From Pyrinomonadaceae bacterium (GTDB lineage Bacteria > Acidobacteriota > Blastocatellia > Pyrinomonadales > Pyrinomonadaceae), in NCBI GenBank assembly GCA_035941045.1, contig DASZEK010000198.1, positions 660 to 64,659 of the forward strand: a stretch of DNA of 64,000 bases, read 5' to 3'. Both the position numbers and the translations under genes were made by a program. The notes beneath the pieces were generated by a model that saw nothing but the letters and a program-made list of their open reading frames with translations, was not told the origin of the DNA and searched no databases. This document shows positions 26,104-61,334 of this stretch, one piece after another. The number at the start of each line of letters is the position of its first letter. Within the stretch, counting starts at the first letter, position 1.

Positions 26104-28080
26104 TCAGGCGGCGCAGGTCAGGCCCGCGCCTTCGGCGGCCCGCTTCGCGCGGCGCGCGGCGGCCTCGCGGGCCAGCTCGGCGATGCGGTCGGCCGTGAAC
26201 GGCTTCGTCACCACCCAGTCCACGCGCGCGGCCTTGCGCTCGCCCGAGCCGAGCGCCTCGCCCCAGCCCGTGACGACGGCTATCGGCACCACGTCGTCCT
26301 CCTGACGTATCGCGTGCGCCAGCTCCCAGCCGCTCATGCCCGGCATGCCGATGTCCGTGAAGACGGCGTCGAAGCCGCCGCCGCGGAAGAGCGTCAGCGC
26401 CTCGAACCCGCCCGCGGCCGGGCACACCAGATGCCCTTCGGCCTCAAGAATCTCGCACAGCAGCTCGCGCACCGTCGGCTCGTCGTCCACGACGAGAACC
26501 TTCAGAGAGTCCGAAGGCGACTGCGCGCCGCCGCCCTTCTTCTCATGCTCCTTCGCGGCGCGGGCGGGCGCCGCGGCTTGGGCGGCGGGCAGGGAGATGC
26601 GGAAGGTCGTTCCGGCGCCGACGCGCGACTCGACCTCGATGCTGCCTTCGTGGCGGCGGATGATGCCGTAGCTGACGGCCAGTCCCAGGCCCAGCCCCGC
26701 CTCGCCCTTCGTCGTGAAGAACGGGTCGAAGATGCGCGAGCGCACCTCCTGCGTCATGCCGACGCCCGTGTCGCCGACCGAGAGCACGACGCGCCCGCCC
26801 TCCTCGCTTGAGGCGAGCGTGAGCGTGCCGCCGTCGGGCATCGCGTCCACGGCGTTGAAGACCATGTTGACGAGGACCTCGCGCAGCTCCGAGCCGTCGC
26901 CGTGCACAATCGCGTTCGATTGCGTGCGCAGTTGGAGCGCGATGTGGACGCCGCTCGCCTCGGCGCGGTCCTTCCAGCGCGGCCGGGTCATCTCGCTCAC
27001 GTCCGAGAGGAGTTGGCCGACGGCGAGGGGCTCCAGCGCGTGCGCGCGGCGCTGGCGCGCGAAGTCCTGAATGCGCTTGACGGTCTTGGCGCCGTCCTCG
27101 GCCGACTTGATGATGACTTCGAGCCCGCGCCTGATCTTCTCCGGGTCCTGCGTGCGCATCATGAGCTGGGCGCGGCCGAGGATGCCGGCGAGCGTGTTGT
27201 TGAAGTCGTGGGCCACGCCCGACGCCAGCTCGCCCAGCGCCGAGAGCTTTTCAATCTGCGCGTACTGCTCCCTTATCCTCTCCTGCTCGGCGATGTAGTG
27301 CGACAGCTCCTCGACGTGGCGGCGGGCCTGCTCGGCCTGCGCCGCCGAAGTCTCGACGTTCTTCATGTACGTCCGGTAGGTGAAGTAGACGATGAAGATG
27401 ATGGGCGTCGAGACGATGAGGGCGGAGGTGCCGAAGACGCGCATGAGGGCCGCGATCATGCCGGCGGCCGAGGCGCCCGCGAAGTACGTGATGGAGGTCC
27501 AGAGGTATTGGCGGTGCCAGGTCTGCCAGAAGGGGCGGTTGGCGTTGAGCGAGGCGGCGAGCGCGATGAGGCCGGAGTTGGCGGCGTACTGCACGAGCGC
27601 CATCAGGCCGACGGCCGAGATGAATTGCCCGTCGAACCCGCCGTCGAAGCCGAGTCCCGCGCCGAAGCAGAGGCGGAGCGCGGCGTATGCGATGAAGGTC
27701 GCCGCCGCCATCGCCGCCGCGTTGTAGGCGACCGTCACCTTCTGCTTGCAGAAGCGCGCCGTGGAGGCCAGCCCCTCGGCCGAGCCGAGCAGGACCGCGG
27801 CCTCGCCGCCGTAGAGGATGAGCGTCAGGAAGAGGAGCGTGTCGGAGACGGAGACGGCCGAGCCGAAGCGCGGGATTTTGATGGAGATGCGCGACGTGAC
27901 GCCGAGCGTCAGGAGCGCGAGCAGCAGGAAGCGAAACTCCAGCGCGGCGGGCGGGAAGTTGAACGCGGAGTAGAGGACGACCGCGGCGGCGGCCGTGATG
28001 ACGAGCCAGCAGACGGGCAGGAAAAGTCTCTGCCTGCGCGCCGGCCCGGCCAACCCTAAATCCGCGGTCTGTGCGGTCAT
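26104..28080 (-). CDS. Hybrid sensor histidine kinase / response regulator with polytopic N-terminal membrane domain
   Basis: About 6-7 predicted TM helices. HisKA H-box LASGVAHDFNNTLAGILG. HATPase_c motifs (NAVDAM; DTGVGM; GLGLGLAVS). C-terminal receiver VLVVDDEPTVRELL...DAVFTDIGMPGMSG. ATG 28080 is preferred; an alternative GTG at 28107 would overlap the upstream stop as GTGA. Confidence 0.85.
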   Translation of the reverse strand: MTAQTADLGLAGPARRQRLFLPVCWLVITAAAAVVLYSAFNFPPAALEFRFLLLALLTLGVTSRISIKIPRFGSAVSVSDTLLFLTLILYGGEAAVLLGSAEGLASTARFCKQKVTVAYNAAAMAAATFIAYAALRLCFGAGLGFDGGFDGQFISAVGLMALVQYAANSGLIALAASLNANRPFWQTWHRQYLWTSITYFAGASAAGMIAALMRVFGTSALIVSTPIIFIVYFTYRTYMKNVETSAAQAEQARRHVEELSHYIAEQERIREQYAQIEKLSALGELASGVAHDFNNTLAGILGRAQLMMRTQDPEKIRRGLEVIIKSAEDGAKTVKRIQDFARQRRAHALEPLAVGQLLSDVSEMTRPRWKDRAEASGVHIALQLRTQSNAIVHGDGSELREVLVNMVFNAVDAMPDGGTLTLASSEEGGRVVLSVGDTGVGMTQEVRSRIFDPFFTTKGEAGLGLGLAVSYGIIRRHEGSIEVESRVGAGTTFRISLPAAQAAAPARAAKEHEKKGGGAQSPSDSLKVLVVDDEPTVRELLCEILEAEGHLVCPAAGGFEALTLFRGGGFDAVFTDIGMPGMSGWELAHAIRQEDDVVPIAVVTGWGEALGSGERKAARVDWVVTKPFTADRIAELAREAAARRAKRAAEGAGLTCAA

Positions 28081-28103
28081 CAGTAGCGCCCCCCGGAGGC
28101 CCC

Positions 28104-30791
28104 TCACCTCACGACGGCGACGCGGTCGCCCGTCGTCTTCAAGAGCACCTTCCGCCCGTCGGCGGCCAGCACGTGAAGCTCGTCGGCATCAAGCTTGAAA
28201 GCGTCGTCGCCTTCGGCGAGCGCCTGCACTTCGACGACGAGCAGGACGCCCGCGCCCGAAAGCTCGCTCACGCCGGCCGCGGGCGTGAAGGAGACGAGGA
28301 CGAGGCCCTCGGGCGTCACGGAGGCGCGGCAGGAGGCGGAGGCGACGGGGAAGATGCCGCCGGGGTTGACGGAGATGACGGAGATGACGCGCGGGTCGAA
28401 GCGCAGCGTGGCGGCGACGAGCCCGAGCGGCGCGTCCGTCTTGAGAAGGAGTTTCAACTGCCGCTTGTCGCCGACGCGCATCGGCTGCGAATCGGAGACG
28501 AGGCGGAAGGAGGCGGCGCTGCGCGCGGAGTCGGCCGAGAGGAAGCTGCCCTTCCAAGGCCCGACGGCGGGCGCGGGGTTCGAGATTTGTCTCGCGGGCG
28601 CCGACGAAGCGGGCGCCTTGTAGACGGCTTCGCTCGTCGGCGGGACCTTCGGCGCCGCGGGCGGCGTGGCGGTCTGGCTCATCAACTCGCGCGGGGCGGG
28701 GACGAAGGTGGGCGCCTCGGCCTTGGCCGTCTCGTCTTCATAAGTCTCGACGACGGCGGGCTCGTTCGCGGGCGGCGCGGCCGACTTGTTGGCCGATGCG
28801 TTGACTGCCGCGGTCGGCTTGTTGGTGATGGCGGCGGACTCGGGCAGCTCGACGCGGGCGTTCCTCGGGAGGACGCGCGCGGCGGCAAACTGCTCTTCGC
28901 GGTAAGTCTCATTGAGCATGGCTTCCAGCGTCTCGCTCGTCGGCGTTTGCAGCGTGCCGGAGGGGCGCATCTGCTCGTCCTGCGGCGTGACCGAGGGCGC
29001 GCGCATGACGTGCGGCGTGACGGCGATGACGATGTCGGTGTTGGTGTTGCTGTTGCGCGGGGCCGTGAAGGCGCGGCCGAGAACGGGCAGGAGGCCGAGC
29101 AGCGGGAGCCCCTGACGGCCGCGCGACTGCGAGTTCTGCGCGACCGAGGCGATCATCATCGTCCGGCTGTTCTGGATGCGGGCCGTGCCCTCGATGTTGC
29201 GCTCGGTGAAGGTCGGCGTCAGCGCCGGGCCGCCGGCCGTCTGCATCACGTCGTTCGACTTGATGGACATCTTCACCTGCACGTCAAGGTTAGGGAAGAC
29301 CTGCGGCGTGAACTCAAGCGTCAGGCCCGTCTTCTCGTACTGGATGACGGGGTAGCCGTTGCCGCCGAAGAGCCCTTGAGTGACGCCCGGCTGCTTGTCG
29401 TCGCCGCCCGACGAGAGCGAGCCGTAGGGCGCGACCGACGCCGTCTGCACGGGGACGCGCTGCCCGATGTGGGCCGTGGACTTCTCGCCGTCAAAGGCGT
29501 GGACCTGAGTGGAGGCGACGAGGCGCGTGTTGTCCTTGCGTTGGAGCGCGGAGAGGGCCGTGGCCGGGATGACGAGCGCGGCGCCGAGCGCGGTCGGGGC
29601 GGCGACGGCGCCCACGCCCTGCGTCACCACGTCGCGGCTGCCGCCGAAGACCGACAGGCCCTTCGTGATGCCGCCGAGGTTCAGGAGCGAAGCCTCCCCG
29701 CCGAGCTGGTTGCCGAACTGCATGAGGTCGGCCCGCGACACCTCGTAGATGTTCACGTCCATCACGACCTCGGCGCGCTCCTTGTCGATGCTGCGGAGGA
29801 TGTCCCCGACGAGGCGGATGTTCTCGGGCGTGTCGCGGACGGTGATGGAGTTGGTTGACTTGTTGGCCGTGATGACGGGCTGGCGCCCGGCCTGCGGCGG
29901 GATGGAAGCCTGTATCAACTGCTTCGCCTCGTTCGGGTCAACGTTATAGAGGTAGAAGGTACGGAGGACGAGTTGTTGATACTGCGGGCGCTTGACCTGG
30001 TCGGCGACGAGGATGGTGCGCGGCGAAAGCTTCTGGTAAAAGAGCCCCTGCGTGAGAAAGATGTAGTCGAGCGCCTGCGCGGCCGTCACGTCCTGCAAAT
30101 CAACTTCGACGCTGCGGCGGGGGAAGTCGCGGTCGAAGACGACGTTGAGGCGAACCTGCCGGGCGAGGTACTTGATAAACTTTTCGAGGTCGCCGCTGAA
30201 AGTTATCTCGTGCAACTGCTCGACGCGCGGGGCCGGCGCCGCCGCGGGCGCGTCCACGCCGTCGCCCTTGCCCGCGGGGCCGCCGTAGACGGCAGGCGAG
30301 ACGCGCGCCGTCGGCCCCATCCTCGTCGGCTCGGGCCGCGCGGGGCCGCTCTTTTCGAGCTGGAGGCTGAGCGTGCGCTCCATCATCGAGGCGGCGAGCT
30401 GGTTCGAGGCGTCGTAGGCGTTGGCGCGGCGGAAGGCGTTATAGGCGCCGACGTAGTCGCCGCGCTCAAGCAGGGTCGCGCCCTGCTGCATGAATGCCTG
30501 CGAGGCGTTGAAGACGGCGCGGCGGTAGTGAAGCTGGTATTCGGCGTTGGAAGGCTCGGCCGCCAGCGCCAGCGCGAACTCTTCCGCTGCCTTTTCCCAT
30601 TGCTGCGCGGCCTCGTGTTCAACACCGCGCTTGTAGTTCTTCTGCCCCTTGCCGCTGAAGGCGGCCGCGGGGCCGGCGCAGAGCAGGAGGGCTAGGGTGA
30701 GGGAAAGCGTCCTTTGAACGGCCTGCCCGCCGCGGCGAGAAAACGTTGAGGCTGTTGAGTTTAGGTTGAGCATTGAGAATCGCCCTGGCAA
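28104..30791 (-). CDS. TPR - secretin (GspD/PilQ superfamily) fusion protein with C-terminal cohesin-like domain
   Basis: 895 aa. Signal peptide, then TPR-like region (YKRGVEHEAAQQWEKAAEEFALALAAEPSNAEYQLHY...). STN/secretin-N-like repeats (VTAAQALDYIFLTQGLFYQKLSPRTILVAD; ITVRDTPENIRLVGDILRSIDK). Secretin core ending LPLLGLLPVLGRAF...TDIVIAVTPHVM. The C-terminal ~130 aa resemble a cohesin/Ig-like domain (LGLVAATLRFDPRVISVISV...VLLVVEVQALAEGD). Confidence 0.8.
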   Translation of the reverse strand: MPGRFSMLNLNSTASTFSRRGGQAVQRTLSLTLALLLCAGPAAAFSGKGQKNYKRGVEHEAAQQWEKAAEEFALALAAEPSNAEYQLHYRRAVFNASQAFMQQGATLLERGDYVGAYNAFRRANAYDASNQLAASMMERTLSLQLEKSGPARPEPTRMGPTARVSPAVYGGPAGKGDGVDAPAAAPAPRVEQLHEITFSGDLEKFIKYLARQVRLNVVFDRDFPRRSVEVDLQDVTAAQALDYIFLTQGLFYQKLSPRTILVADQVKRPQYQQLVLRTFYLYNVDPNEAKQLIQASIPPQAGRQPVITANKSTNSITVRDTPENIRLVGDILRSIDKERAEVVMDVNIYEVSRADLMQFGNQLGGEASLLNLGGITKGLSVFGGSRDVVTQGVGAVAAPTALGAALVIPATALSALQRKDNTRLVASTQVHAFDGEKSTAHIGQRVPVQTASVAPYGSLSSGGDDKQPGVTQGLFGGNGYPVIQYEKTGLTLEFTPQVFPNLDVQVKMSIKSNDVMQTAGGPALTPTFTERNIEGTARIQNSRTMMIASVAQNSQSRGRQGLPLLGLLPVLGRAFTAPRNSNTNTDIVIAVTPHVMRAPSVTPQDEQMRPSGTLQTPTSETLEAMLNETYREEQFAAARVLPRNARVELPESAAITNKPTAAVNASANKSAAPPANEPAVVETYEDETAKAEAPTFVPAPRELMSQTATPPAAPKVPPTSEAVYKAPASSAPARQISNPAPAVGPWKGSFLSADSARSAASFRLVSDSQPMRVGDKRQLKLLLKTDAPLGLVAATLRFDPRVISVISVNPGGIFPVASASCRASVTPEGLVLVSFTPAAGVSELSGAGVLLVVEVQALAEGDDAFKLDADELHVLAADGRKVLLKTTGDRVAVVR

Positions 30792-43579: not shown

Positions 43580-43654
43580 GGCGGCTAGTCGGGCTTGAAC
43601 CGACGACCTCGTGATCCACAGTCACGCGCTCTAACCAACTGAGCTATAGCCGCC
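43580..43654 (-). tRNA. tRNA-His (anticodon GUG)
   Basis: Hand-folded cloverleaf: G(-1)-GCGGCTA / TAGCCGC-C acceptor with encoded G-1:C73 (His identity). D arm GCTC..GAGC. Anticodon stem CGTGA/TCACG with loop CTGTGGA. T arm GTCGG-TTCAAGC-CCGAC. CCA is not encoded. Confidence 0.9.
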
Positions 43655-44289: not shown

Positions 44290-44362
44290 TGCCCCCGGCA
44301 CGGCTCGAACGTGCGACCCTCTGCTTAGAAGGCAGATGCTCTATCCACTGAGCTACGGGGGC
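44290..44362 (-). tRNA. tRNA-Arg (anticodon UCU)
   Basis: Hand-folded cloverleaf: acceptor GCCCCCG/CGGGGGC-A. D arm GCTC-AGTGGATA-GAGC. Anticodon stem TCTGC/GCAGA with loop CTTCTAA. T arm GCACG-TTCGAGC-CGTGC. Confidence 0.9.
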
Positions 44363-46916: not shown

Positions 46917-46990
46917 TCGGGCAGAGAGGATTTGAACCTCCGACCCCCGCATCCCAAATGCGGTGCGCTACCAGACTGCGCTACTGCCCG
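46917..46990 (-). tRNA. tRNA-Pro (anticodon UGG)
   Basis: Hand-folded cloverleaf: acceptor CGGGCAG/CTGCCCG-A. D arm GCGC-AGTCTGGTA-GCGC. Anticodon stem CCGCA/TGCGG with loop TTTGGGA. T arm GGAGG-TTCAAAT-CCTCT. Confidence 0.9.
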
Positions 46991-49114: not shown

Positions 49115-50839
49115 TTAGCGCGGAGCGAAGCGCACGACCATCTCGCCGAACTGTCCGAAGGCCGAGAGCGTCCGCTTCTCGAAGCCCACGTCGGTGACGC
49201 GCGTCTCGCTCTCGCTGTAGGCGTGGCGCGTGAGGGCGCGCTCGAAAGCCTGCGGGTCGGCCGGGCGTGAATCTTCGCCCCGCCGGGCCGCGAAGTAGCC
49301 GACGACGGCGCGGGCCGACTCGCGGTCGTCAGTGATTGTGCGGACGAAGGCGTCCGGCGCGGAGAAGTCGAGCGGCGCCGTCTTAAAAGATTCGTCAGCG
49401 CCGAGCGTCTTCTTCTCGGAGATGGCTTTCAGACAACGACGCACGTCCTCCTCGGAGCCGAGCAGCAGATGCTTGTTGACGAAGCCGGCCGCGCCCCTGT
49501 CCTCGGCCGTCGAGACGAATAACTCGGCGCCGTCGATTGTTTCCTTACTCGCGCCCGCGCCGAGATGCGTTCGCACAAGCTCACGCAGGAGCGTTTCGTT
49601 CCGCACGGGCGTGAGGAGGACTTTGCCCTCGCTCTTGGCGTCGAGCCTCGCCGTCGCGAGCCACGGGCCGCCCGCGCGCAGGAAGTCGCGCGGACGCTCG
49701 ACGCCGTAGGGCTTGAGCAGCGATTCGAGGGCGAGCGTGATGATGGTGGCGCGCGAGATGTCCACCTGCGAAGAGAGGGCCGCGCCGACCGCCTTCCAAG
49801 CCTCCTCGGGGCTCCGAAAATCATAAAGGGAAACCTGATAGGTCCCCGCCGGCAGGAGCCCCGCGGCCCCGCTCTCACGCTTTGAAGGGGGCGAGAGCGC
49901 CGGCCCGAGCCTCTGCGCGACCCCGCCGGCAAGCCCCAGAAAGTATCGGTCCTCGACGCGCCCGCCTGTGAGATGCGAACTCCAGCCGACGCTCCCCAAA
50001 GTCTGGTTGATGAGCTGAGGCAGCACCGTCGCCATCAAGCTCTGCGCCTTAGAATCTTCCGAGACGCCGCCGACGAGGGCGGGCGCGAAGACCTCGACCA
50101 TCCTCGCCGCGCTCCCCGTCGGCGCGAACCCGAAGGCCAGCGCTCCGCGCGCGCCGACCCTCGCCCGCACGTCCTCAAGCTCAGCGTTGCCGGCCAGACT
50201 CTTCCGCCCGCCCCGCCGCACGTCAACGCACGCGCGCACAGCCGACTCGTCGTTGCCCACCACGGCCACGCTCTCGTAGACGGCCGCGACAATCCTCTTG
50301 CGCGAGCCCCCCTGCGCCGCCCAAGTCACGTAACCGACGCCGTCAACCTCTTTCCTCTCAACACTAGGCGCCCCGAAAGATTTTCGGGCGAAGTCACCGA
50401 CGATCTTCTCGACGGCCGAGCGCACGCGCCACTCGCTCGTGTGCGTCTCGGCGACGAGCGCCGCCCGCGGCGTGAACTTGATGGCCGTCCCCGATTCCTC
50501 CGCCGCCTCGAAGCCGAGAATCGTGACGGCGACCTGCGCGCGCGAGAGCACCACGGCCTCGCCCGGCCCGAGGCCCGTGAACGATAGCCAGCGGCTCGTC
50601 CTCGGGGACAAATACCAGCCGCCCCCGACGCCCGCGGCCGGCGCAAGCTCGCGCCAGGCGTCGGTCGAGACGACGGCCTCGACGACGGCCGGGAGGTCGT
50701 CCGTCTCCATGTAAACTATTGAGTCCGTAGGCGCATAGGCCGCCATGTCAACCTTCACGGGGCGCGTAAACCAGAGGTACACAAAGCCCCCTACCAGCAG
50801 CAGGCCGACCGCGATGAGAGCCCAGCGAAGGAAAGCCAT
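49115..50839 (-). CDS. Hypothetical N-terminally membrane-anchored protein (DUF3352-like architecture)
   Basis: About 574 aa from ATG 50839. N-terminal anchor MAFLRWALIAVGLLLVGGFVYLWF followed by a large soluble domain. The architecture reminds me of DUF3352 proteins (weak recollection). Confidence 0.6.
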   Translation of the reverse strand: MAFLRWALIAVGLLLVGGFVYLWFTRPVKVDMAAYAPTDSIVYMETDDLPAVVEAVVSTDAWRELAPAAGVGGGWYLSPRTSRWLSFTGLGPGEAVVLSRAQVAVTILGFEAAEESGTAIKFTPRAALVAETHTSEWRVRSAVEKIVGDFARKSFGAPSVERKEVDGVGYVTWAAQGGSRKRIVAAVYESVAVVGNDESAVRACVDVRRGGRKSLAGNAELEDVRARVGARGALAFGFAPTGSAARMVEVFAPALVGGVSEDSKAQSLMATVLPQLINQTLGSVGWSSHLTGGRVEDRYFLGLAGGVAQRLGPALSPPSKRESGAAGLLPAGTYQVSLYDFRSPEEAWKAVGAALSSQVDISRATIITLALESLLKPYGVERPRDFLRAGGPWLATARLDAKSEGKVLLTPVRNETLLRELVRTHLGAGASKETIDGAELFVSTAEDRGAAGFVNKHLLLGSEEDVRRCLKAISEKKTLGADESFKTAPLDFSAPDAFVRTITDDRESARAVVGYFAARRGEDSRPADPQAFERALTRHAYSESETRVTDVGFEKRTLSAFGQFGEMVVRFAPR

Positions 50840-51011
50840 ACGGGGCATCCTAACTGCACGCCGAGAGGCGAGGCAAGCATCCTCCGGCGCTTCTGCCGCC
50901 CCGAAGTGACCGGGAACCCGCGCCGGGAAATTTTTGGAAGTCATCTTGATTTGTCCAGAAAAGTTCGCCAAAATATTGAAAGCACAACGGTTAAACCATG
51001 CAAAATATCGG

Positions 51012-51041
51012 TTGACATGTTCACCGTGAGTGTCTTATAGT
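51012..51041 (+). promoter_or_regulatory. Near-consensus sigma70-type promoter upstream of the pil leader
   Basis: TTGACA (51012-51017), an 18-nt spacer, then TATAGT (51036-41), in an AT-rich patch of a ~610-nt intergenic region. Confidence 0.5.
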
Positions 51042-51094
51042 CATTGTGGCAGATGTGAGCCGCCCGAATCCTTTCTGGCGGCGCACTTTGAAAC

Positions 51095-51192
51095 TCAACC
51101 GAAAAGGCACACTACGCGCGAGCGTAGGCCGCAAAGCCAACGGGAGTCGGGCCAACATAAAACCGCCGCGACTCGGCCGGGTTACCGAAGGG
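51095..51192 (+). promoter_or_regulatory. Candidate class I c-di-GMP riboswitch aptamer (GEMM-I-like)
   Basis: Ordered elements run 5' to 3': aaaaGGCACAC; a 6-bp hairpin with GNRA loop, ctacgc-GCGA-gcgtag (51112-27); GCCGCAAAGCC (51128-38); a long imperfect hairpin CGGGAGTCGGGC...GCCGCGACTCGGCCG with an A-rich loop ACATAAAACC; and GGGTTACCGA (51179-88). These mirror GGCAAACC / GAAA hairpin / ACGCAAAGCC / P-stem / GGGUUACCGA of the V. cholerae Vc2 aptamer as I recall it. Not verified with a covariance model. Confidence 0.5.
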
Positions 51193-51453
51193 GAGATGAC
51201 TCGCCCGCCCTCGGAAACAAGTCCCCGCGCCCAAGCCTTTTACACGCCGGCCCGGCCCCTCGACCAGAGGCCGCCGCGCCGCCCGCCCTCCTCAGCGCCC
51301 ACAGGCACGGGCGCCACCCAGACGATGAAGCCCGCCGCAGCCAGCAGCACGACGCGTCCGCGCACGACCCGCGCCAGGGTCCGGCGCGTGCGCGCGCGCC
51401 TGCGGCGACGCCACCGCCAACAGTCACTCCAAGCCCGAAGGAACGGATAGAAC

Positions 51454-52515
51454 ATGTTTAAGAGAAACCTCGGCAGGAAGGGCCTCGTGGGCCTCGACAT
51501 CGGTTCGAGCTCGATCAAGGCCGTCGAGTTGCAGGGCAAGCCCGGCTCGCTCCAACTCGTCAACCTCGGCTTCGAGGGCCTTCAGCCCGACACGGTCGTG
51601 GACGGCCAGATCATGGAGCTGAACGACGTGTCGAACGTCATCTCCGGCCTCTTCGGCGCCCACCAGTTCAAGACCGACCGCGTGGCCGCCGGGGTCTCCG
51701 GCAGCTCCGTCATCGTCAAGAACATCATCGTGCCGCAGATGACGCGCGAGGAGTTGCAGGAGTCCATCGACTGGCACGCCGAGGAGCACATCCCGTTCGA
51801 GATTTCGGACGTGAGCCTCGACTATCAGGTCGTCGGCTCGGGCCACGACTCGCTGCACGTCCTGATGGCGGCCTGCAAGCGCGACTCCATCGCCAATCTT
51901 AAGCAGGCCATCCAGCTCGCCGGCAAGCACCCGACCGTCATCGACGTGGACGCCTTCGCCCTCCAGAACTGCTACGAGCTGAACTACCAGCCGCCCGACG
52001 AGCTGGTCGTGGCGCTCCTGAACGTCGGCGCCTCGACGATGAACATCAACATCGTGAAGGGCGTCCGCAGCGTCTTCACGCGCGACGTGTCGGTCGGCGG
52101 CAACCAGTACACGGCCCTCTTGCAGAAGGAGCTGGGGCTGACGCACGAGCAAGCCGAGGCCGTGAAGCGCGGCGGGCCTGCGCCCTCGCACGTCGAGGCC
52201 GTCGATTTGGAAGGCGTGCTGGAAACCGTCTCGGACATGCTCGCTTTGGAAATCTCGAAGACCTTCGACTTCTACCGCGCCACGGCCGAAGACTCGAACG
52301 CCGCCGTGCAGAAGATCATGATCTCGGGCGGCGGGTCGAAGCTCCGGGGGCTGACCGAGTTCCTCTCGGGCCGCTTCGAGATCCCGGTCGAGCGGCTCGA
52401 CCCCTTCCGCCGCATCAAGTTCGACGCGCGGCGCTTCGACCCCGACTACATGCGCGAAGTCGTGCCCGAGATGGCCGTCGCCGTGGGCCTCGCCCTGAGA
52501 GGAGTGGATGCTTAA
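51454..52515 (+). CDS. pilM: Type IV pilus assembly protein PilM (actin-like ATPase fold)
   Basis: 353 aa. N-terminus LVGLDIGSSSIKAVEL ... VIDVDAFALQN ... MISGGGSKLRGL, typical of PilM. Confidence 0.9.
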   Translation: MFKRNLGRKGLVGLDIGSSSIKAVELQGKPGSLQLVNLGFEGLQPDTVVDGQIMELNDVSNVISGLFGAHQFKTDRVAAGVSGSSVIVKNIIVPQMTREELQESIDWHAEEHIPFEISDVSLDYQVVGSGHDSLHVLMAACKRDSIANLKQAIQLAGKHPTVIDVDAFALQNCYELNYQPPDELVVALLNVGASTMNINIVKGVRSVFTRDVSVGGNQYTALLQKELGLTHEQAEAVKRGGPAPSHVEAVDLEGVLETVSDMLALEISKTFDFYRATAEDSNAAVQKIMISGGGSKLRGLTEFLSGRFEIPVERLDPFRRIKFDARRFDPDYMREVVPEMAVAVGLALRGVDA

Positions 52516-53220
52516 ATGATCAAGGTCAACCTACTGGACTCCGTCACCGACCGCGCGACGAGCGTCGCCGTCGTCGAGGAGAAGGTCTCGAACCCGCGGA
52601 CGCGGATGCTCGTCATGGCGGCGTCGGTCGCCTCGCTGATGGTGCTCGCCGTCGTCTTCGACTACGTCAGCGCCAACACGGCCAACGCGCGCGCCAAGGC
52701 CGAGCTTGAGCGGCAGCAGCAGATCGCCGCGCAGATGGCGGCCATCAACAAGGAGCAGGCCGACCTGGAGAAGAAGATCAAGGACATCCAGGTCCGCATC
52801 GACGCCATCAAGAAGCTCCGCTCTTCGCAGCAGGGCCCGGTCGCGCTGCTCTCCGAGCTTAACGAGCGGCTGCCGAAGGCCGACGAGTTCCGCCTGGAGT
52901 CCGTCGAGCAGAAGAACGGCGAGCTGATCATCGAGGGCAACTCGCCCAACGAGTACGCCGTCACGCAGTTCGGCCGCAGCCTCGAATTCTCCTCCGGCCT
53001 CTTCCAGAACGTGAGCCTTGAGACCGAGCGCAAGGAGCTGGAGATCAACGCGGCCGACTACGCCGCCGAAGGCCCGCTCGACCTGACCATTAAGCCGCAG
53101 ACGGTCCGCTTCAAGGTCAAGTGCAAGTACGTGCCGGGCGGGACGCAGCCCGCGCCGACAGCGACGGCCGCCGCCCCGGCCGCCCCCGCCGCCGCCGCGC
53201 CGCAGGTCGCGAGCCGCTAG
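52516..53220 (+). CDS. pilN: Type IV pilus assembly protein PilN
   Basis: 234 aa. Starts directly after the pilM stop (TAAATG). MIKVNLL N-terminus, a single TM helix, then a coiled coil and the PilN-type periplasmic domain. Ala/Pro-rich tail. Confidence 0.8.
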   Translation: MIKVNLLDSVTDRATSVAVVEEKVSNPRTRMLVMAASVASLMVLAVVFDYVSANTANARAKAELERQQQIAAQMAAINKEQADLEKKIKDIQVRIDAIKKLRSSQQGPVALLSELNERLPKADEFRLESVEQKNGELIIEGNSPNEYAVTQFGRSLEFSSGLFQNVSLETERKELEINAADYAAEGPLDLTIKPQTVRFKVKCKYVPGGTQPAPTATAAAPAAPAAAAPQVASR

Positions 53221-53248
53221 ACGACGCCTCGCAGAAGGGAAACGAACG

Positions 53249-53920
53249 ATGTTCAAACTCGAAGTATTGCCCGAGAAGCCCTGGTACTTCCAGGCCGCCG
53301 TCTTCGGCCTCATCGCCGCCGCCGTCTACTTCGGCTTCTACTACATGGTGACGAGCGGCACGCGCGCCGAGACCGCCGAGGTCGAGGAGAAGGTCGCCAA
53401 GCTCCAGCAGGACAACGCGCGCGCGCAGATAGCCTCGCAGCGCCTCAACGAGTTCAAGGCCAACTACGCGCAGGCCAAGGCCGACTACGAAGACCTGAAG
53501 GCGCTCCTCCCCGAGCAGCGCGAGCTGACGATGGTCCTCCAGAACGTGCAGGACCGCGCGCGGGGCCGCCTGACGCTGCACCGCTTCACGCCCAAGGACG
53601 AGGTCCAGCAGGACTTCTACACGGGCAAGCCCATCGAGCTCGAAGTCTCCGGCACCTATAACAACGTCGGCCAGTTCTTCCAGCAGTTGGCTTCCTACCA
53701 GCGCATCGTCTCGGTCACGGACTTCCGCATCACGCGCCTCCGCGAAGGGCGCGCGCAGGACAAGGCCGACGGCAAGACCATCGACGCGCAGTTCCTTTTG
53801 ACCGCCTACTACGCTTCGCCCGAGAAGATACAGGCCGCCGCCCCGGCACCCGCGCCGGCCGCCGCGCCGCCTGCCGCCGCAGCCAACGGCGCCCCCGCCC
53901 CGGCCCCTGCCGCCAAGTAG
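53249..53920 (+). CDS. pilO: Type IV pilus assembly protein PilO
   Basis: 223 aa. N-terminal TM helix WYFQAAVFGLIAAAVYFGFYYMV, a coiled coil, and a PilO-like domain (IELEVSGTYNNVGQFFQQLASYQRIVSVTDFRI). Confidence 0.75.
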   Translation: MFKLEVLPEKPWYFQAAVFGLIAAAVYFGFYYMVTSGTRAETAEVEEKVAKLQQDNARAQIASQRLNEFKANYAQAKADYEDLKALLPEQRELTMVLQNVQDRARGRLTLHRFTPKDEVQQDFYTGKPIELEVSGTYNNVGQFFQQLASYQRIVSVTDFRITRLREGRAQDKADGKTIDAQFLLTAYYASPEKIQAAAPAPAPAAAPPAAAANGAPAPAPAAK

Positions 53921-53980
53921 GGGGTAGAGAGGGCGTGCGCCCCCGACCAGAGCGTCTTTAACCGGAACAGGAAGAGAACG

Positions 53981-54712
53981 ATGAAAGACAGCACACCCAA
54001 CTTCCGACGCGCGGCGCAGGGCCTCGCGGCCTGCGTGCTCCTAGTTGGCGCCGCCGCGTCCGCCTTCGGGCAGACCGCCAACGCCACCTACCGCGGCGCG
54101 CCGCGCGACCCGTTCACGAAGTACAAGCCGAACCTCAAGACCCGGCTCATCAAGCCCGTCGCGAAGCCGGTCGAGGTGCCGCCCATCAAGGCGCGCATCG
54201 ACAACTACAAGGCGCAGAAGCAGGCGGCGATGAGCCTCCAGCAGCCGGCGCCGAAGCCGACGACGGCCCTGCTCCTCAGCGAGCTTCAGGTCATCGGCAT
54301 CTTCCGCACCCCGCGCGGCTACGCCGCGATGGTCGAGGCCACGCCCATCCACCTCTCCTACGTCGTCTACCCCGGCGAGCCCTTCTACGACGGGATGCTC
54401 GTCGCCATCGAAGAGACGCGCCTCGTCTTCCGCAGGCAGACGCGCTGGACGGACGGCCGGACGGAAGTCGCCGTCGAGACCAAGCAGCTCAGGCAGGCCA
54501 GCGTCTCCGACTCGATGGCCGCCACCCGCGAGCCCGAGGCCGCGCCCGCCAAGGGCTCATCGGAGGTCAACGCGTTCCTCGAAGTTCTGAAGGCCCTGGC
54601 CGCCGCCAACGCGCAGCAGCAGCAACAGCCGCAGCAGCCGGGCGGACAGGCCGCCCCGCAGCACGGCACCGGCGCGGGCGCCGGCGCCGGCAGCAACGCC
54701 AGCCGTCCCTGA
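53981..54712 (+). CDS. PilP-like pilus assembly protein
   Basis: 243 aa. Signal peptide. Central beta-sandwich-like segment LSELQVIGIFRTPRGYAAMVEA...YVVYPGEPFYDGMLVAIEETRLVF resembles the PilP core. Its position between pilO and pilQ fits. Gln/Ala-rich tail. Confidence 0.55.
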   Translation: MKDSTPNFRRAAQGLAACVLLVGAAASAFGQTANATYRGAPRDPFTKYKPNLKTRLIKPVAKPVEVPPIKARIDNYKAQKQAAMSLQQPAPKPTTALLLSELQVIGIFRTPRGYAAMVEATPIHLSYVVYPGEPFYDGMLVAIEETRLVFRRQTRWTDGRTEVAVETKQLRQASVSDSMAATREPEAAPAKGSSEVNAFLEVLKALAAANAQQQQQPQQPGGQAAPQHGTGAGAGAGSNASRP

Positions 54713-54958
54713 AACCCCCACCCCAGCCCGACCCCGCCCGTAGTAGCTCGCCTCCGCCGGCCACCCGGCCGGGCGCGCGAGAGAGAGGACGCCGCGCCGA
54801 CTTGAGAAGGCGGCGTCGTTGACAGCCGAGACCGTCGGGTCGTGTCCGCGTTGTGCGGCGCGCGCTTGAAGGGCGGTGCCTCCTCAAAGGGGGGCGCCCG
54901 AACGAGCGTTAGCGTGTGGCGGCCACCCCCGTCGTGCCTTGCTCAGAAGGAAGAGAAC

Positions 54959-57061
54959 ATGTCCCACATTAAAAACATCACCCGGCACATGAGGGGGGGC
55001 GCGCTCGTCCTCTCGCTCCTGTGCCTGCTCGGCGCCTCGTCGCCGGCAGCCCGCGGCGCGACGCCCGCCGGCCTGCCCGTCGCCAAGAGCGTGCGCGCGG
55101 CCACCAGCGGCGCTTCCACTCTCATCACCATCTCGGGGACGGCGCCGATGCCCTACAGCGTCCGCCGGCCCGAAGCCCGCCTGCTCGTCGTCGAGCTGCC
55201 GGGCGTTGACGCCACGCAACTCGCGCCCGCCTACGACATCGCCTCGCCGCTCGTCGCGGGCGTCGAGGTCCGCCGGACGCTGCGCGGCACGGAGCCCGTC
55301 GCCAGCCTCCAAATCGCCCTCCGCGCGCCCGTCCGCGAGCGTTCGCACCTCGCCGGCAACGAGCTGGTCCTGGAGCTCCAGCCCGAGACGGCCGCCTCGA
55401 CGCCGGCCGCCGCGCAGTCGCGCCCCACGCCGACCCCCACCCCGGACGCGCAAGGCCCTTCGCAGCCCCCCACGCAGGGGCAGCAGTACGGCCAGCCCGG
55501 CTTCATCGGCGAGCCCATCAACCTCAACGTCGTCAACGCCGACATCCGCGACATCCTCAACTACATCACCGAGCAGTACGGCGTGAACTTCGTCGTCGAT
55601 TCCTCGGTGCGCCAGGTGCCCGTCACCATCAACGTCACCGAGGTGCCCTGGAACTTCGCGCTCGACTCGCTGCTGAAGGCCAACCGCCTCGGCATCGAGG
55701 TCAACGGCAACATCCTCCGCATCGCCACGCTCGAAGTCCTGAAGGACGAGGCGAAGATTCGCGCCGAGGAGGCCGCCGCGCAGTCGCGGCTCCGCGAGGC
55801 GCAGCTTGAGAACACGCCCCTCGTCACCGAGTTCATCCGCCTCAACTACGCGCGCGCCTCCGGCTCGCTGGCCTCGGCCGCGGGCGGGTCCGACGCGTTC
55901 ACGGGCGGCGGCTCCGCGGGCGGCGGCTCGGGCGGCGGCTCCGGGATAATGCCCATCATCGCCCGCCGGCTCTCGCGCCGCGGCGGCATCGAGGTGGACG
56001 ACCGCAGCAACACGCTCATCGTCACGGACGTGCGCGAGAACATCGACGCCATCCGCCGCCTCGTCCAGCTCCTCGACCAGCCCGAGCCGCAGGTCGAAAT
56101 CGAGACGCGCATCGTCGTCGCCAGCCGCAACTTCAGCCGCGACCTCGGCGTCCAGCTCTCGGCCTCCGTCCTGAACCCGAGCCGCGGCACCTTCGGCTCC
56201 TTCGGGACGCAGAACGGCATCAACCTCACGAACGGCACCAACTCGCTGACCATCCCGGCGCCGTCCGGCTCGCTCGGCGCGGCCGGCCCGAACACGGTCA
56301 TCGGCCTGACGACCGGCATCTTCGGCACGGCGCAGATTTCGGCCCTCATCACGGCGGCCGAGGCCAAGGGCCAGGCCAAGGTCATCGCCACGCCGCGCGT
56401 CACGGCGCTCAACAACCGCTCCGCGCAGATCGAGTCGGGCTCGCAGATTCCCGTCGTCACGCCTCAGATCGGCGCGGGCGGCGGCTCCAGCCTCTTCACG
56501 ACGACCTTCGTCTCAGTGCCCCTGCGCCTCTCCGTCACGCCGCAGATTACGGACGCGGGCACGGTCATCATGCGCGTCACGATGGAGAACAACACCGTCA
56601 ACACCACGGTCAACTCGCTCGGCACGCCCGGCATCGACACCCAGCGCATGCAGACCGAGGTGCTCGTGCCCGACGGCGGCACGACGGTCGTCGGCGGCGT
56701 CATGACCGACCGCGAGACCGACGTTAATAACCGCACGCCCGGCCTCGCCAGCATCCCCGTCGTCGGCAACCTCTTCAAGCGTAAGCTCATCACGCGCAAC
56801 ACCGACGAGATACTCTTCTTCATCACGCCGCGCATCTACCGCCCCGACTACCAGGGCCGCCGCATCGAGACCGACCCGGCCACCGGGACGCGCTCCGTCA
56901 CCATCCCGCAGCCGGTCCCGCTCGGCAACCCCGGCACCAACACGCCCACCCCGAGCATGCCGCAGCAACAGCCGCAGGTGCCCGCCAACAACGCCGCGCC
57001 CGCGACGACCGTCCCCGCCGGCACCGACGCGACGCCGGCCGCGCCCACCTCGCGCCCGTAA
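54959..57061 (+). CDS. pilQ: Type IV pilus secretin PilQ (AMIN domain + secretin-N repeats + secretin core)
   Basis: ATG 54959 preceded by GAAGGAAGAG. Signal peptide. AMIN-like segment STLITISGTAPMPYSVRRPEARLLVVELPGV. STN/N0-like PINLNVVNADIRDILNYITEQYGVNFVVD. Secretin core GIPVVGNLFKRKLITRNTDEILFFITPRI. Confidence 0.85.
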   Translation: MSHIKNITRHMRGGALVLSLLCLLGASSPAARGATPAGLPVAKSVRAATSGASTLITISGTAPMPYSVRRPEARLLVVELPGVDATQLAPAYDIASPLVAGVEVRRTLRGTEPVASLQIALRAPVRERSHLAGNELVLELQPETAASTPAAAQSRPTPTPTPDAQGPSQPPTQGQQYGQPGFIGEPINLNVVNADIRDILNYITEQYGVNFVVDSSVRQVPVTINVTEVPWNFALDSLLKANRLGIEVNGNILRIATLEVLKDEAKIRAEEAAAQSRLREAQLENTPLVTEFIRLNYARASGSLASAAGGSDAFTGGGSAGGGSGGGSGIMPIIARRLSRRGGIEVDDRSNTLIVTDVRENIDAIRRLVQLLDQPEPQVEIETRIVVASRNFSRDLGVQLSASVLNPSRGTFGSFGTQNGINLTNGTNSLTIPAPSGSLGAAGPNTVIGLTTGIFGTAQISALITAAEAKGQAKVIATPRVTALNNRSAQIESGSQIPVVTPQIGAGGGSSLFTTTFVSVPLRLSVTPQITDAGTVIMRVTMENNTVNTTVNSLGTPGIDTQRMQTEVLVPDGGTTVVGGVMTDRETDVNNRTPGLASIPVVGNLFKRKLITRNTDEILFFITPRIYRPDYQGRRIETDPATGTRSVTIPQPVPLGNPGTNTPTPSMPQQQPQVPANNAAPATTVPAGTDATPAAPTSRP

Positions 57062-59282: not shown

Positions 59283-61334
59283 TCAAGCCTTCTCGACGGC
59301 CTGCCGCCGGGCCTTCATGCCCTCCAGGACGAGGGTGAACTTGTCGTTGAAGTGTTTCTCGGAAAGATACTCCGGCGCGGGCACCTCGGGGGGGCCCTGG
59401 AGGATGACGGGCAAAATCTCGGGCAGGCCGTCGCCCTCCTTCTTCATGTGGTCGAGCGCGTGCAGCACCTCCTTCCTCACGTACTCCGACTCGTACGCCG
59501 CCTTCGACCAGAAGAGGAGGAGGATGTGGCTCTCGTCTATGTGCTTGTAGATGCCCTTCTCCCAACGCTCGCCCGGCTTGAGCGAGAGCACGTCCTCGAA
59601 ACAGTTGAACTTGAAGAGGTCCAAGAGCCGGACGCACTTGGTGACCTCTTCGCAGTCCTCGGAGGCGTAGGAGACGAAGACGTTCCTGTAGCGGAAGAAG
59701 GGGTGCGCCTCCAACTCGCCCGCCACGGCCGAGATGACGAGGTCGAAGGTGATGCGGCCGAGCAGCATCCCGTCGCAGAGGACGCGGAGCGTGCCGAAAA
59801 TGTTCGTCCCCTCCTTGCACGTCTCGGGCACGTCAACGATGAACTCGACCTCCTTGACCTTGCCCTTCCACTTGAAGGTCTCCTCCGCGGGCGCGCGCAC
59901 CGACAGGCCGGGCATCTCCAGTTGGAAGGTCAGCCGCTGGCCCTGCATGACCTTCTCTTCCAACTCCTCCGAGCCGCGCAGGACGGCCGCCTTGCCCCGC
60001 TGCTTCACTTTGTCGGCCAGCAGGTCGGTCTGGCCTTCGAGGTGCGCATAGGCCAGCACCATGAAGGAGGAGCCGGGCATGGCGTGCGGCGGGGCGTAGA
60101 CGGTGCACTGTACGTCGTCGCCCTCTTCGGCCGGGGCCGCGGCGGCGTGCGGGGGGGCTTGCGGCACGGGCGCGGGCAGCGGCACGGGCGGCGGGGCGGG
60201 CGTCTCGCCGCCCGGCGCCGGCTCGCCGCGGGCGCCCTTGACGTGCTCGTAAGCGGCGAACGTCGCGGCGCTGAGTAAGGCGAGCAGGAGGCCGATGAGG
60301 ACGTATTTCAAGGTCAGACTGAGCAGGGACACGCCCGCGACTTGCACGGTGCTCGGGGTCGTGGCGACGACGGGCGGCGGGGGAGTCGTCACGGGCTCGG
60401 GCGTGGGCGTGGGCGACGGTTCGGGAGAGGGGGTGGGCGTCGCGGCGGCGATGAGGACCGTGTCGTCCTTGGGGGTCGGCGTCGGCGTCGGGGTGGGAGT
60501 GGGCGTCGGCGTCGGGGTAGGCGTCGGGGCCGCAAGGATTTTCGTCACGCAGGACAGGGTGCAGCGGGGGCCGTAGCCGCGCGCCTCGAAGGTCGCGTGG
60601 ATGGTCCGGCCGGCGAGGCCGCTCGTGTCAACCTCGGCCGAAGTCGTGTCGGCGCCGGTGATGAAGCGGCCCGCCGAGACGTTCCACGTGAAGGTGGGCG
60701 AGGCGCCGGGCGTGCCGCCTTCGACCGTGGCGCCGAGCGGGGCGGGCTGGCCTTCCGTCACCTCGTCGCGGCAGCAGAGGGAGATGGCGGGGCAGTAGAC
60801 GCGGCGCGGCTCGGCGGGGCAGGCGCGCACGGCGACCTCGGCCGTCCGCGCGGCGAGCGCGGCGCCCTCGGGGCTCCTCAGCGTCACGGTGGCCCTGTAG
60901 GCTCCGGGCGCGGCCCCCGACAAATCCCAAACGACTTCGCCGCCCCCGCCGCCGATGCTCCCGCCGCTCGCCGCCCACGCGTAACGGAAGGGCTCGCCGC
61001 CCGGCGCGAAGCCCGTCGCCAGCAGTCGCACCCGCGCCGAGCTGTTAGGGCCGGAGCAGTTCGTGACGGCGGTCGCGCTGGCCGCGAGCCCGACCATCGG
61101 GCTTTCGGCGCGCGCCAGCTTCCGGCCCGCGAAGGGCGAGCCTAGCTGCTCGAAGAACTGGCTCGGCCGTTCGGGCGTCGGGCCGGGCGCGGCGCGGCGC
61201 GGCCTCACCGGGGGTGACTGCCTCGCGGCGTCCGGGGGCGCGGATTGTGCGCGGGGAGTCGCGTGCGCGGCGCAGACGAGGAGGCACGCGGCGGCCAGCA
61301 GGCGCGAGAAGGTTTCGACGGTAACGTGTTTCAT
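59283..61334 (-). CDS. Single-pass membrane protein: extracytoplasmic Ig/PKD-like repeats - PT-rich linker - TM helix - cytoplasmic beta-sandwich-like domain - C-terminal TIR domain
   Basis: 683 aa. GAGG lies 7 nt upstream of the ATG. Signal peptide MKHVTVETFSRLLAAACLLVCAAHA. Two Cys-framed Ig-like modules. (PT)n linker. TM helix LTLKYVLIGLLLALLSAATFAAY. TIR signature NVFVSYASEDCEEV ... ILLLFWSKAAYESEYVRKEV (the SxYVxxE glutamate position corresponds to the catalytic Glu of NADase-type TIRs). Confidence 0.8.
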   Translation of the reverse strand: MKHVTVETFSRLLAAACLLVCAAHATPRAQSAPPDAARQSPPVRPRRAAPGPTPERPSQFFEQLGSPFAGRKLARAESPMVGLAASATAVTNCSGPNSSARVRLLATGFAPGGEPFRYAWAASGGSIGGGGGEVVWDLSGAAPGAYRATVTLRSPEGAALAARTAEVAVRACPAEPRRVYCPAISLCCRDEVTEGQPAPLGATVEGGTPGASPTFTWNVSAGRFITGADTTSAEVDTSGLAGRTIHATFEARGYGPRCTLSCVTKILAAPTPTPTPTPTPTPTPTPTPKDDTVLIAAATPTPSPEPSPTPTPEPVTTPPPPVVATTPSTVQVAGVSLLSLTLKYVLIGLLLALLSAATFAAYEHVKGARGEPAPGGETPAPPPVPLPAPVPQAPPHAAAAPAEEGDDVQCTVYAPPHAMPGSSFMVLAYAHLEGQTDLLADKVKQRGKAAVLRGSEELEEKVMQGQRLTFQLEMPGLSVRAPAEETFKWKGKVKEVEFIVDVPETCKEGTNIFGTLRVLCDGMLLGRITFDLVISAVAGELEAHPFFRYRNVFVSYASEDCEEVTKCVRLLDLFKFNCFEDVLSLKPGERWEKGIYKHIDESHILLLFWSKAAYESEYVRKEVLHALDHMKKEGDGLPEILPVILQGPPEVPAPEYLSEKHFNDKFTLVLEGMKARRQAVEKA

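Follow-up and report, generated by a model that had tools for sequence, protein, structure and literature searches.

The stretch of DNA analysed here, hereafter the window, is a 64-kb segment of a Pyrinomonadaceae (Acidobacteriota) genome with 68% G+C. It carries a pilMNOPQ operon (51454-57061, + strand) downstream of a leader in which a promoter is followed by an aptamer for cyclic di-GMP (c-di-GMP) of class I, the GEMM-I type, then by a C-rich spacer and finally by a short arginine-rich open reading frame (ORF), called here the micro-ORF, that abuts pilM. We are highly confident of the joint description in which the identity of the aptamer, its conservation, its structure, its contact nucleotides, the promoter, the coding status of the micro-ORF and the juxtaposition of the micro-ORF stop with the pilM start all hold together. 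The features of the locus are the following.

51012-51041, + strand: sigma-70-type promoter, TTGACA-18-TATAGT, matching 11 of 12 consensus positions.
51059-51082, + strand: small 5′ hairpin GCCGCC-N12-GGCGGC, read from the sequence, in the interval between the predicted transcription start and the aptamer.
51094-51195, + strand: class I c-di-GMP (GEMM-I) aptamer with its P1 stem, assigned from the RF01051 match, a covariance model of our own and covariation.
51094-51096 with 51193-51195, + strand: candidate P1 extension, CUC with GAG, 75-78% paired in a fixed register.
C51100-G51187 and G51101-C51186, + strand: P1 core, invariant and 98-99% paired.
51106, + strand: position G20, which is G in 74 and C in 4 of 78 aptamers.
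51133, + strand: position A47, which is A in 78 of 78 aptamers.
51185, + strand: position C92, which is C in 78 of 78 aptamers.
51196-51324, + strand: C-rich, G-poor spacer, a candidate Rho utilization (rut) region or expression platform in view of its composition and pyrimidine tracts.
51204-51209 and 51282-51287, + strand: pyrimidine tracts CCCGCC, read from the sequence, as is the tract CCCUCCUC at 51286-51293.
51325-51450, + strand: micro-ORF of 41 codons plus a stop, MKPAAASSTTRPRTTRARVRRVRARLRRRHRQQSLQARRNG, conserved and under protein-level selection.
51454-52515, + strand: pilM (Pfam PilM_2, PF11104, 1e-68).
52516-53220, + strand: pilN (Pfam PilN, 7e-7).
53249-53920, + strand: pilO (Pfam PilO, 3e-27).
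53981-54712, + strand: ORF of 243 aa at the position of pilP, without a Pfam or NCBIfam match.
54842-57061, + strand: pilQ secretin (Pfam Secretin, 4e-41, with Secretin_N and STN).

By its covariance-model score, its covariation and its ligand-contact nucleotides, the element is a genuine c-di-GMP-I aptamer. The Rfam model RF01051 (c-di-GMP-I) matches 51096-51189 on the + strand over its full length (positions 1-87 of 87) with 49.1 bits against a gathering score of 35, and the E-value of this match is 1.4e-6 for both strands of the whole 64-kb window. At the gathering thresholds, Rfam finds four matches in the window, three tRNAs and RF01051, the latter being the sole riboswitch match. A permissive Rfam scan of 50850-51560 gave nothing credible beyond RF01051, and RF01786 (c-di-GMP-II) had no match in this region even at E <= 10. 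The GGC variant RF03167 was ruled out, the window scoring 49.2 against a gathering score of 59 and reading CGCAAA, with A47, and not CGCGAA. Along the sequence, GGCACAC (51106-51112) is followed by the hairpin CTACGC-GCGA-GCGTAG (51112-51127), by GCCGCAAAGCC (51128-51138), by a long second hairpin (51141-51179) and by GGGTTACCGA (51179-51188). A preliminary description of this DNA had proposed a GEMM-I riboswitch from elements of this kind in this order. All of these elements are present where it had placed them, the score of the Infernal scan with RF01051 exceeds the curated threshold, and the class assignment is supported by this score together with covariation in orthologues.

The conservation of the aptamer was followed in 80 loci, obtained by a PilM search of GTDB species-representative genomes and showing PilM identities of 74-99%; nearly all of them are labelled Pyrinomonadaceae or Acidobacteriota. 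A regular expression for the aptamer core matched in front of pilM in 68 loci, the distance to the ATG being 255-380 nt in each of them. In an Rfam scan of 20 loci that deliberately included failures of this expression, 19 reached a gathering score of the c-di-GMP-I clan, 17 being reported as RF01051 and two as RF03167. The latter two (L010:2099-2188 and L018:2096-2187) score 59.6 and 61.3 against 59 with RF03167, yet they contain the canonical CGCAAAGCC; since A47 is thereby retained, their labels look like an effect of clan competition and not like the true variant. Our own covariance model, built from a MAFFT alignment of 72 aptamers and searched against the window and the 80 loci, gave a single match in the window (118.6 bits, 51083-51204) and one aptamer in each of 77 loci, always on the pilM strand. 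The remaining loci are L007 and two with truncated contigs, L006 and L061, which extend only 76 and 322 nt beyond pilM on its 5′ side. The aptamer is kept at one fixed position in 77 of the 78 evaluable loci, and an independent Joint Genome Institute (JGI) metagenome contig also carries it. L007 (2216-2500) represents a natural riboswitch loss: the aptamer and the first part of the leader and spacer are cleanly deleted, and the TTGACA-18-TATAGT promoter, the AAACCCUCCUCAG tract, the micro-ORF and pilM are retained. It was also observed that the distal loop of the second aptamer hairpin is completely different between the window and its relative L001, whose PilM proteins are 99% identical.

Two alignments were used to assess the structure, A1, made with MAFFT and without structural reference, and A3, a model-based alignment of 78 sequences. 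In A1, 96.5% of 1870 cells form standard pairs, a proportion that falls to 27-44% once the 3′ partners are shifted by 1-3 columns. Changes on both sides are found at 12 of 26 pairs, and the observed values were not attained in a single one of 500 shuffles, whichever of the five measures is taken. A3 gives the same picture, the proportion of paired cells being 96.5-96.7% over both alignments. The GNRA-capped hairpin (51112-51127, loop GCGA) is 100% paired and shows compensatory changes at five of its six pairs, and the second hairpin, taken over 51135-51183, is 98.9% paired with four covarying pairs. Thus covariation in orthologous leaders, by which the preliminary description had proposed to judge its two hairpins, is found in both of them, with the aptamer present in 77 of the 80 pilM loci. 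The tetraloop, GCGA in the window, is GCGA (63) or GUGA (15) in the relatives, always of the GNRA type; in this riboswitch class such a loop docks into the second hairpin.

Positions G20, A47 and C92 (Vc2 numbering) are those that we take to be the ligand contacts in the structure of Vibrio cholerae Vc2. Where all three are present, as in the window and 74 of 78 relatives, the aptamer is predicted to recognise c-di-GMP and not cyclic GMP-AMP (cGAMP); c-di-GMP is the predicted ligand, and its binding is what we infer from these nucleotides. Position 20 is known to govern selectivity, A20 being the mark of the cGAMP-selective GEMM-Ib aptamers (PMC6456294). Membership of GEMM-Ib was rejected, A20 being found in none of the 78 aptamers and the window having G at 51106. 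Four relatives carry C20 instead of G20 (L002:12-136, L026:2082-2210, L057:2069-2191 and L071:2073-2196; AAACGCAC vs AAAGGCAC). These aptamers are otherwise intact, including A47 and C92. The change, seen in no fewer than three separate branches, could be a tolerated one or could alter the ligand specificity.

Upstream of the aptamer, the promoter read in the preliminary description at 51012-51041 is borne out by its 11 matches to the 12 consensus positions. A simple consensus scan of 50800-51600 finds two promoter-like sites, against 0.1 expected in shuffles, and the predicted transcription start is at about 51048. At least 52 of 74 orthologous loci have a TTGACA, a spacer of 17-18 nt and a -10 element TATAGT, TATATT or TACTCT upstream of the aptamer, and the distance from the -10 element to the aptamer core varies among relatives from 64 to 139 nt. 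The 5′ leader before the aptamer measures 64 nt in the window and in L001, and about 100-140 nt in most relatives, where it is variable and hairpin-rich. The 17 nt directly 5′ of the aptamer core, CUUUGAAACUCAACCGA, are highly conserved in all relatives. The divergent gene lying upstream most likely starts at ATG 50839, which leaves about 614 nt to pilM and agrees with the gap of about 610 nt given earlier.

On the other side of the aptamer, C92 is followed by a tail rich in purines, whose sequence is CCGAAGGGGAG in the window, and GGUGAGG and GUGUGACGG in other clades. An exact complement of the triplet in the 5′ flank (CUC, GUC, CUG and others) is found within the tail in 66 of 78 sequences, whereas shuffled partners give 45 ± 3 and, over 1000 shuffles, never more than 58. 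A GUC flank is accompanied by a GAC tail in 16 of 17 cases, and a CUC flank in 5 of 46. These observations are suggestive of a tail forming the 3′ strand of an extended P1. The extension is considered only suggestive since most of the signal comes from one clade split and since pairing in the fixed register reaches 75-78%. A first, crude best-helix test for this extension gave no better result than shuffled partners (3.81 vs 3.92).

The tail may have a second partner. In the window, CCCUCGG (51208-51214) can pair with the P1 tail CCGA(A)GGG (51185-51192), and consensus folding in three clades pairs the tail with the first pyrimidine tract, as CCGAAGG with CCUUCGG in clade A. When compared with dinucleotide-shuffled spacers using RNAduplex, the pairing of tail and tract in clade A is significant, with a z-score of about -2, and lies at a fixed position some 60 nt downstream. 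A family-wide "anti-P1" switch helix was rejected, its RNAduplex support being limited to clade A, and it is kept as a lead. Masking of the pilM Shine-Dalgarno (SD) sequence by CCUUCGG was rejected as well: only AAGGA, and not CCGAAGG, is conserved at the pilM ribosome-binding site, and the accessibility of this site is unchanged. In this region, 50 nt found directly after the aptamer tail in L001 and in most relatives are absent from the window (at 51197/51198). What has been deleted is precisely the loop that separates the tail from the CCCGCC tract, both strands being kept.

The spacer from the aptamer to the micro-ORF is 136 nt long in the window and 123-253 nt long among the loci. Its composition in the window is 44-46% C, 28-30% G and only 7% T; the C/G ratio, about 2.05 at 51200-51300, is above the 95th percentile of the window. 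The bias is general, with C exceeding G in 71 of 71 spacers, a mean (C-G)/(C+G) of +0.19, and a median rank of the C-skew within the top 3.8% of windows of the same length taken on either strand of the same locus. The density of YC dinucleotides (Y, pyrimidine) is 0.188 in the spacers vs 0.148 in the background. CCCGCY, usually located 44-64 nt past the aptamer, is found in 50 of 71 spacers, as compared with 24 ± 4 in dinucleotide shuffles; for stretches of 9 or more pyrimidines, the corresponding counts are 54 of 71 and 31 ± 4. Extra conserved structure, or an unusual lack of structure, was considered and rejected for the spacer, the z-scores of the minimum free energy (MFE) being centred on 0.

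Neither of the standard expression platforms was detected. In the window, no intrinsic terminator is found on the + strand, the four reported sites being all on the - strand inside the aptamer, and none is found on the + strand of four orthologous leaders from three clades, some of them with about 50% G+C. An SD-sequestering platform was rejected by partition function calculations at 66 loci, in which the start regions are as accessible with the aptamer blocked as with the aptamer free: with the aptamer and P1 tail blocked from pairing outside or free, the mean unpaired probabilities are 0.507 vs 0.493 at the micro-ORF start and 0.510 vs 0.490 at the pilM start, and the direction of the difference is inconsistent. 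The preliminary description had seen neither a terminator nor an SD-sequestering platform, and had concluded that the regulatory mechanism would be unusual. The first statement holds in the window and in its relatives. The second is borne out as well, but it describes a trait of the whole family and not a peculiarity of this window. Lack of such a platform does not exclude membership of RF01051, since the platform is not a defining feature of this aptamer family.

The whole-leader alignment shows a sharply conserved GATGAAGCC at 51323-51331, followed by a partly codon-periodic conservation extending up to pilM. This region contains the micro-ORF, which had escaped the preliminary description. 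It starts with ATG 51325 and ends with TAG 51448-51450, which leaves 3 nt to the pilM ATG; the conserved AAGGA serving pilM as SD sequence falls within its 3′ end. Of the 80 loci, 74 have an equivalent ORF that begins with ATG and comprises 30-57 codons. It stops 2-6 nt short of the pilM ATG or else overlaps this ATG by 7-8 nt, and its frame relative to pilM varies. Over a core of 17 codons in 68 distinct DNA sequences, the mean column entropy is 0.69, 0.75 and 1.55 at codon positions 1, 2 and 3, respectively; every CGN codon is used for the invariant arginines, with switches to AGR. No variation is seen at R18, R23, R25 and L26, and hardly any at R27 and R31. Between the window and L001 (99% identical), the micro-ORF differs by an in-frame indel of 3 nt. 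Such protein-level purifying selection shows that the micro-ORF is translated. As it sits in the leader and abuts pilM, it is the first cistron downstream of the riboswitch. The pilM leader of about 400 nt described earlier is not a plain untranslated region, since it holds a conserved, translated micro-ORF.

In databases, the micro-ORF is essentially an unannotated, lineage-restricted micro-protein gene. A single-sequence search of 5.8 billion clustered proteins with its peptide found nothing, and a profile of 36 orthologues retrieved only eight relatives of 40-57 aa, the named ones being hypothetical proteins and every named source being a Pyrinomonadaceae. An NCBIfam search returned noise only. 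In a 282-kb JGI contig with the same synteny, the micro-ORF is called as a gene 3 nt upstream of pilM. With eight database entries for about 74 loci, this conserved small protein is nearly always missed by gene callers. An "RTTH" present in some micro-ORFs was examined as a likeness to the SpeFL arrest peptide and discarded as a coincidence, as it is not conserved across clades. In the window, the frame of the micro-ORF is open back through the aptamer to GTG 51046 (51046-51450, + strand, 134 codons), with an in-frame ATG at 51196 directly after GGGGAG. Neither the long frame nor this ATG is conserved in relatives, and the long frame therefore looks like an artefact of high G+C content.

How may the aptamer act on the operon? 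Our best explanation of the whole, which we hold with somewhat more than even confidence, is that a functional class I c-di-GMP riboswitch, in a sigma-70 leader before the micro-ORF and pilMNOPQ, has an output coupled to Rho and translation. Its output stage would be neither an intrinsic terminator nor a simple SD mask. Binding of the ligand would stabilise P1, whose 3′ strand would be the purine-rich tail CCGAAGGGGAG, and the state of P1 would alter the single-strandedness of the C-rich pyrimidine tracts downstream. Exposure of these tracts would in turn set how efficiently Rho loads on the untranslated spacer of 123-253 nt, at a stage when ribosomes have yet to engage the micro-ORF. Once under way, translation of this ORF would shield the transcript and hand ribosomes over to pilM by coupling. 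Taken on its own, an attenuation of the Rho type, in which the aptamer modulates Rho loading and micro-ORF translation protects the transcript, is a tentative proposal. It is the best-supported guess in view of the lack of a terminator or SD mask, the C-rich spacer, the possible switching element, the abutting leader ORF and the high-GC lineage. Through pairing of the tail with CCUUCGG or CCCUCGG, the bound ligand would free the C-rich tract and favour termination. The riboswitch would then be an OFF switch, with less pilus machinery at high c-di-GMP; this is the weakest step, with a likelihood little better than even.

Several observations weigh against this explanation. The excess of C over G fits rut sites but is not specific to them, and the MFE of the spacers equals that of dinucleotide shuffles (71 spacers, mean z -0.06), so that the spacer is not demonstrably unstructured. 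The alternative helix is no better than shuffles, either family-wide (mean z -0.47) or in the window (z +1.1), and the signal for the P1 extension corresponds to few independent events. The micro-ORF has no recognisable SD sequence in any clade. pilM has its own AAGGA, so that coupling between the two may not be obligatory. The pilus-linked cyclic-dinucleotide riboswitches of Geobacter act as ON switches (PMC6456294). Finally, it should be kept in mind that we infer ligand binding, the transcription start and Rho dependence.

A different mechanism would be a translational relay operating without Rho. The aptamer would control initiation at the SD-less micro-ORF, for instance through a pyrimidine-rich standby or S1-binding tract, and pilM would be reached by termination-reinitiation or by coupling. 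In its favour, the micro-ORF ends 2-6 nt short of the pilM ATG, or overlaps it, in essentially all loci, protein-level selection shows that this ORF is translated, its ATG is preceded at a distance of about 57-94 nt by conserved pyrimidine tracts, and in the B12 riboswitch of Mycobacterium tuberculosis ppe2 the synthesis of PPE2 strictly needs the translation of an upstream ORF (uORF) through a stop/start overlap (PMC11260477). However, the predicted accessibility of both starts is constant between the two aptamer states at 66 loci, a conserved pairing against the starts was not found, pilM, unlike ppe2, carries an AAGGA of its own, and an aptamer placed 123-253 nt from the start of the ORF is far away for direct occlusion. 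On balance we find the relay doubtful.

It may also be imagined that the leader is a two-part device, in which the riboswitch would set Rho access and the micro-ORF would encode a functional or arrest micro-peptide. In this case the peptide, with its invariant R..R.RL.R..R located 10-17 residues from the stop, might arrest ribosomes on the pilM ribosome-binding site. Alternatively, the product might be an RNA-binding or antitermination factor of the arginine-rich-motif type, or a pilus accessory factor. We regard such a device as rather unlikely. If it existed, a c-di-GMP riboswitch would for the first time be seen to depend on Rho or on a uORF, and a new family of micro-proteins would be linked to the type IV pili of Acidobacteria.

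The other explanations fare less well. Control of RNA stability or processing, in which a spacer site of the RNase E or RNase Y type, exposed or hidden according to the ligand state, would determine the half-life of the transcript, would account for the finding of neither terminator nor SD mask and for a long spacer without excess structure; riboswitches acting on decay are on record, such as lysC, to judge from the reference list of PMC12360218. Nevertheless, the spacer is GC- and C-rich and shows no conserved AU-rich single-stranded cleavage motif, which makes this route improbable. Slightly less probable still is that the aptamer senses another ligand, such as 3′,3′-cGAMP in the manner of GEMM-Ib. 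GEMM-I aptamers before Geobacter pilMNOP are indeed cGAMP-selective (PMC6456294), and the C20 of four relatives indicates that the selectivity site is evolutionarily labile. The window and 74 of 78 aptamers have G20, however, A47 and C92 are invariant, the change A20G converts a GEMM-Ib aptamer to c-di-GMP selectivity (PMC6456294), and RF03167 stays below its gathering score in the window (49.2 vs 59). We see very little chance that this is a classical terminator/antiterminator riboswitch whose terminator was missed. This is the commonest GEMM-I output in Firmicutes, the platform of Bacillus Bc1 contains two terminators (PMC11218506), and some spacers of clade C show CCCGCUUUUCC after an imperfect helix; yet no + strand site was found in the window or in four leaders from different clades, and the window, with 7% T in its spacer, has no U-tract. 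A chance or decayed match without regulatory role is hardly credible: although the validated GEMM-I aptamer Bc1 binds its ligand with downstream expression unchanged (PMC11218506) and L007 has lost the aptamer and retains the operon, the E-value is 1.4e-6, the aptamer keeps its position in 77 of 78 evaluable loci with PilM identities of 74-99%, and compensatory changes go along with invariant ligand contacts.

The favoured explanation, a c-di-GMP riboswitch with an output coupled to Rho and translation, may be compared with known systems. The aptamer is an ordinary member of RF01051 in a poorly studied phylum. It shares with the prototypes, V. cholerae Vc2 and Vc1, the three-helix junction, the GNRA hairpin, the long second hairpin, G20/A47/C92 and a leader behind a promoter. 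It differs from them by its lineage, by the lack of a terminator or SD platform, and by the C-rich spacer and micro-ORF that precede the main gene. The pilus gene context also has precedent, as the preliminary description had argued: GEMM-Ib riboswitches precede pilus-assembly genes of Geobacter, including a pilMNOP operon, and their targets are expressed 2-3-fold less without cGAMP synthase, which makes them ON switches (PMC6456294). The Geobacter elements have the same aptamer fold as the Pyrinomonadaceae element and likewise regulate type IV pilus alignment/secretin genes. They have A20 and sense cGAMP, whereas the Pyrinomonadaceae element has G20, a predicted specificity for c-di-GMP and an interposed micro-ORF.

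The pilin riboswitch of Clostridioides difficile is reportedly a class II element upstream of pilA1 and an ON switch acting by antitermination. In this organism too, c-di-GMP is coupled to type IV pili directly at the RNA level, but through another aptamer class, for which RF01786 has no match here, and on a pilin gene instead of the pilMNOPQ machinery. That a c-di-GMP riboswitch controls this type IV pilin operon is taken from PMC6916266, where the work of Bordeleau et al. (2015) is cited.

As regards the output stage, the closest likeness is with the B12 riboswitch of M. tuberculosis ppe2, whose relay through the uORF uPPE2 and a stop/start junction has been dissected in a high-GC host (PMC11260477). 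There again, G+C is high and intrinsic terminators are rare, the riboswitch is followed by a translated uORF abutting the main start, and Rho or translational coupling is discussed. As in ppe2, the micro-ORF stop abuts or overlaps the pilM start, in 74 loci, with selection on the coding sequence. The ligand and the aptamer are different, and in ppe2 the switch occludes the SD of the uORF, the main ORF having no SD. The arrangement is reversed in Pyrinomonadaceae, where the micro-ORF has no SD and pilM has AAGGA, and the micro-ORF peptide is strongly conserved.

Rho attenuators controlled by a riboswitch or a uORF are well documented, as for mgtA/mgtL, corA/corL, tnaC, speFL and lysC, and in the leader-ORF attenuators translation of this ORF, or ribosome stalling on it, decides Rho access (PMC12360218). 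Salmonella mgtA/mgtL and corA/corL, as well as Escherichia coli tnaC and speFL, likewise have a long leader, a short translated ORF and a rut region (PMC12360218). In the pilM leaders, a C-rich, G-poor untranslated stretch of rut-like character lies downstream of the sensor, with C > G in 71 of 71 spacers. None of the leader-ORF attenuators senses a cyclic dinucleotide, and in Pyrinomonadaceae it is composition alone that points to Rho. No c-di-GMP riboswitch figures among the Rho-dependent attenuators tabulated in the review PMC12360218. Bacillus thuringiensis Bc1 is another GEMM-I aptamer with an unusually long and complex region before the regulated gene; its platform contains two canonical rho-independent terminators (PMC11218506), whereas none was found in the window or in the four orthologous leaders scanned.

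In full-text searches, nothing was found that links GEMM riboswitches with Acidobacteria and pili, and "c-di-GMP riboswitch" and "pilMNOPQ" were found together only in a review that does not connect them. What is described here goes slightly beyond the routine on two counts, the conserved non-canonical output stage and the conserved, almost never annotated micro-ORF before pilM. With c-di-GMP as the predicted ligand, soil Pyrinomonadaceae, which are abundant and mostly uncultured, would wire their type IV pilus alignment/secretin machinery to c-di-GMP at the RNA level, a link retained in essentially every member of the family examined. If the output depended on Rho or on the uORF, the mechanism of the Mg2+, B12, lysine and flavin mononucleotide leaders would extend to cyclic-dinucleotide sensing. 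For riboswitch biology, the 78 aptamers, the L007 deletion, the 50-nt indel in the platform and the four G20-to-C variants offer a natural series.

Some neighbouring genes of the window may be mentioned. The divergent gene upstream of the leader (49115-50839, - strand, about 574 aa) is syntenic in L081 and is matched by neither Pfam nor NCBIfam. A second secretin gene (Secretin, Secretin_N and STN; 895 aa) adjoins a gene for a hybrid histidine kinase/response regulator (667 aa) at 26104-30791 on the - strand; the pair may belong to a second secretion or pilus system within the window. At 59283-61334 (- strand), a 683-aa protein has a C-terminal TIR_2 domain (PF13676, 1.7e-16) and no domain match in its N-terminal two-thirds, and it could be a defence or signalling protein. 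The three tRNA genes are clustered in a segment of less than 3.5 kb that lies upstream of the pilus locus, at 43580-43653, 44290-44362 and 46917-46990 on the - strand, and match RF00005 with 68-71 bits.

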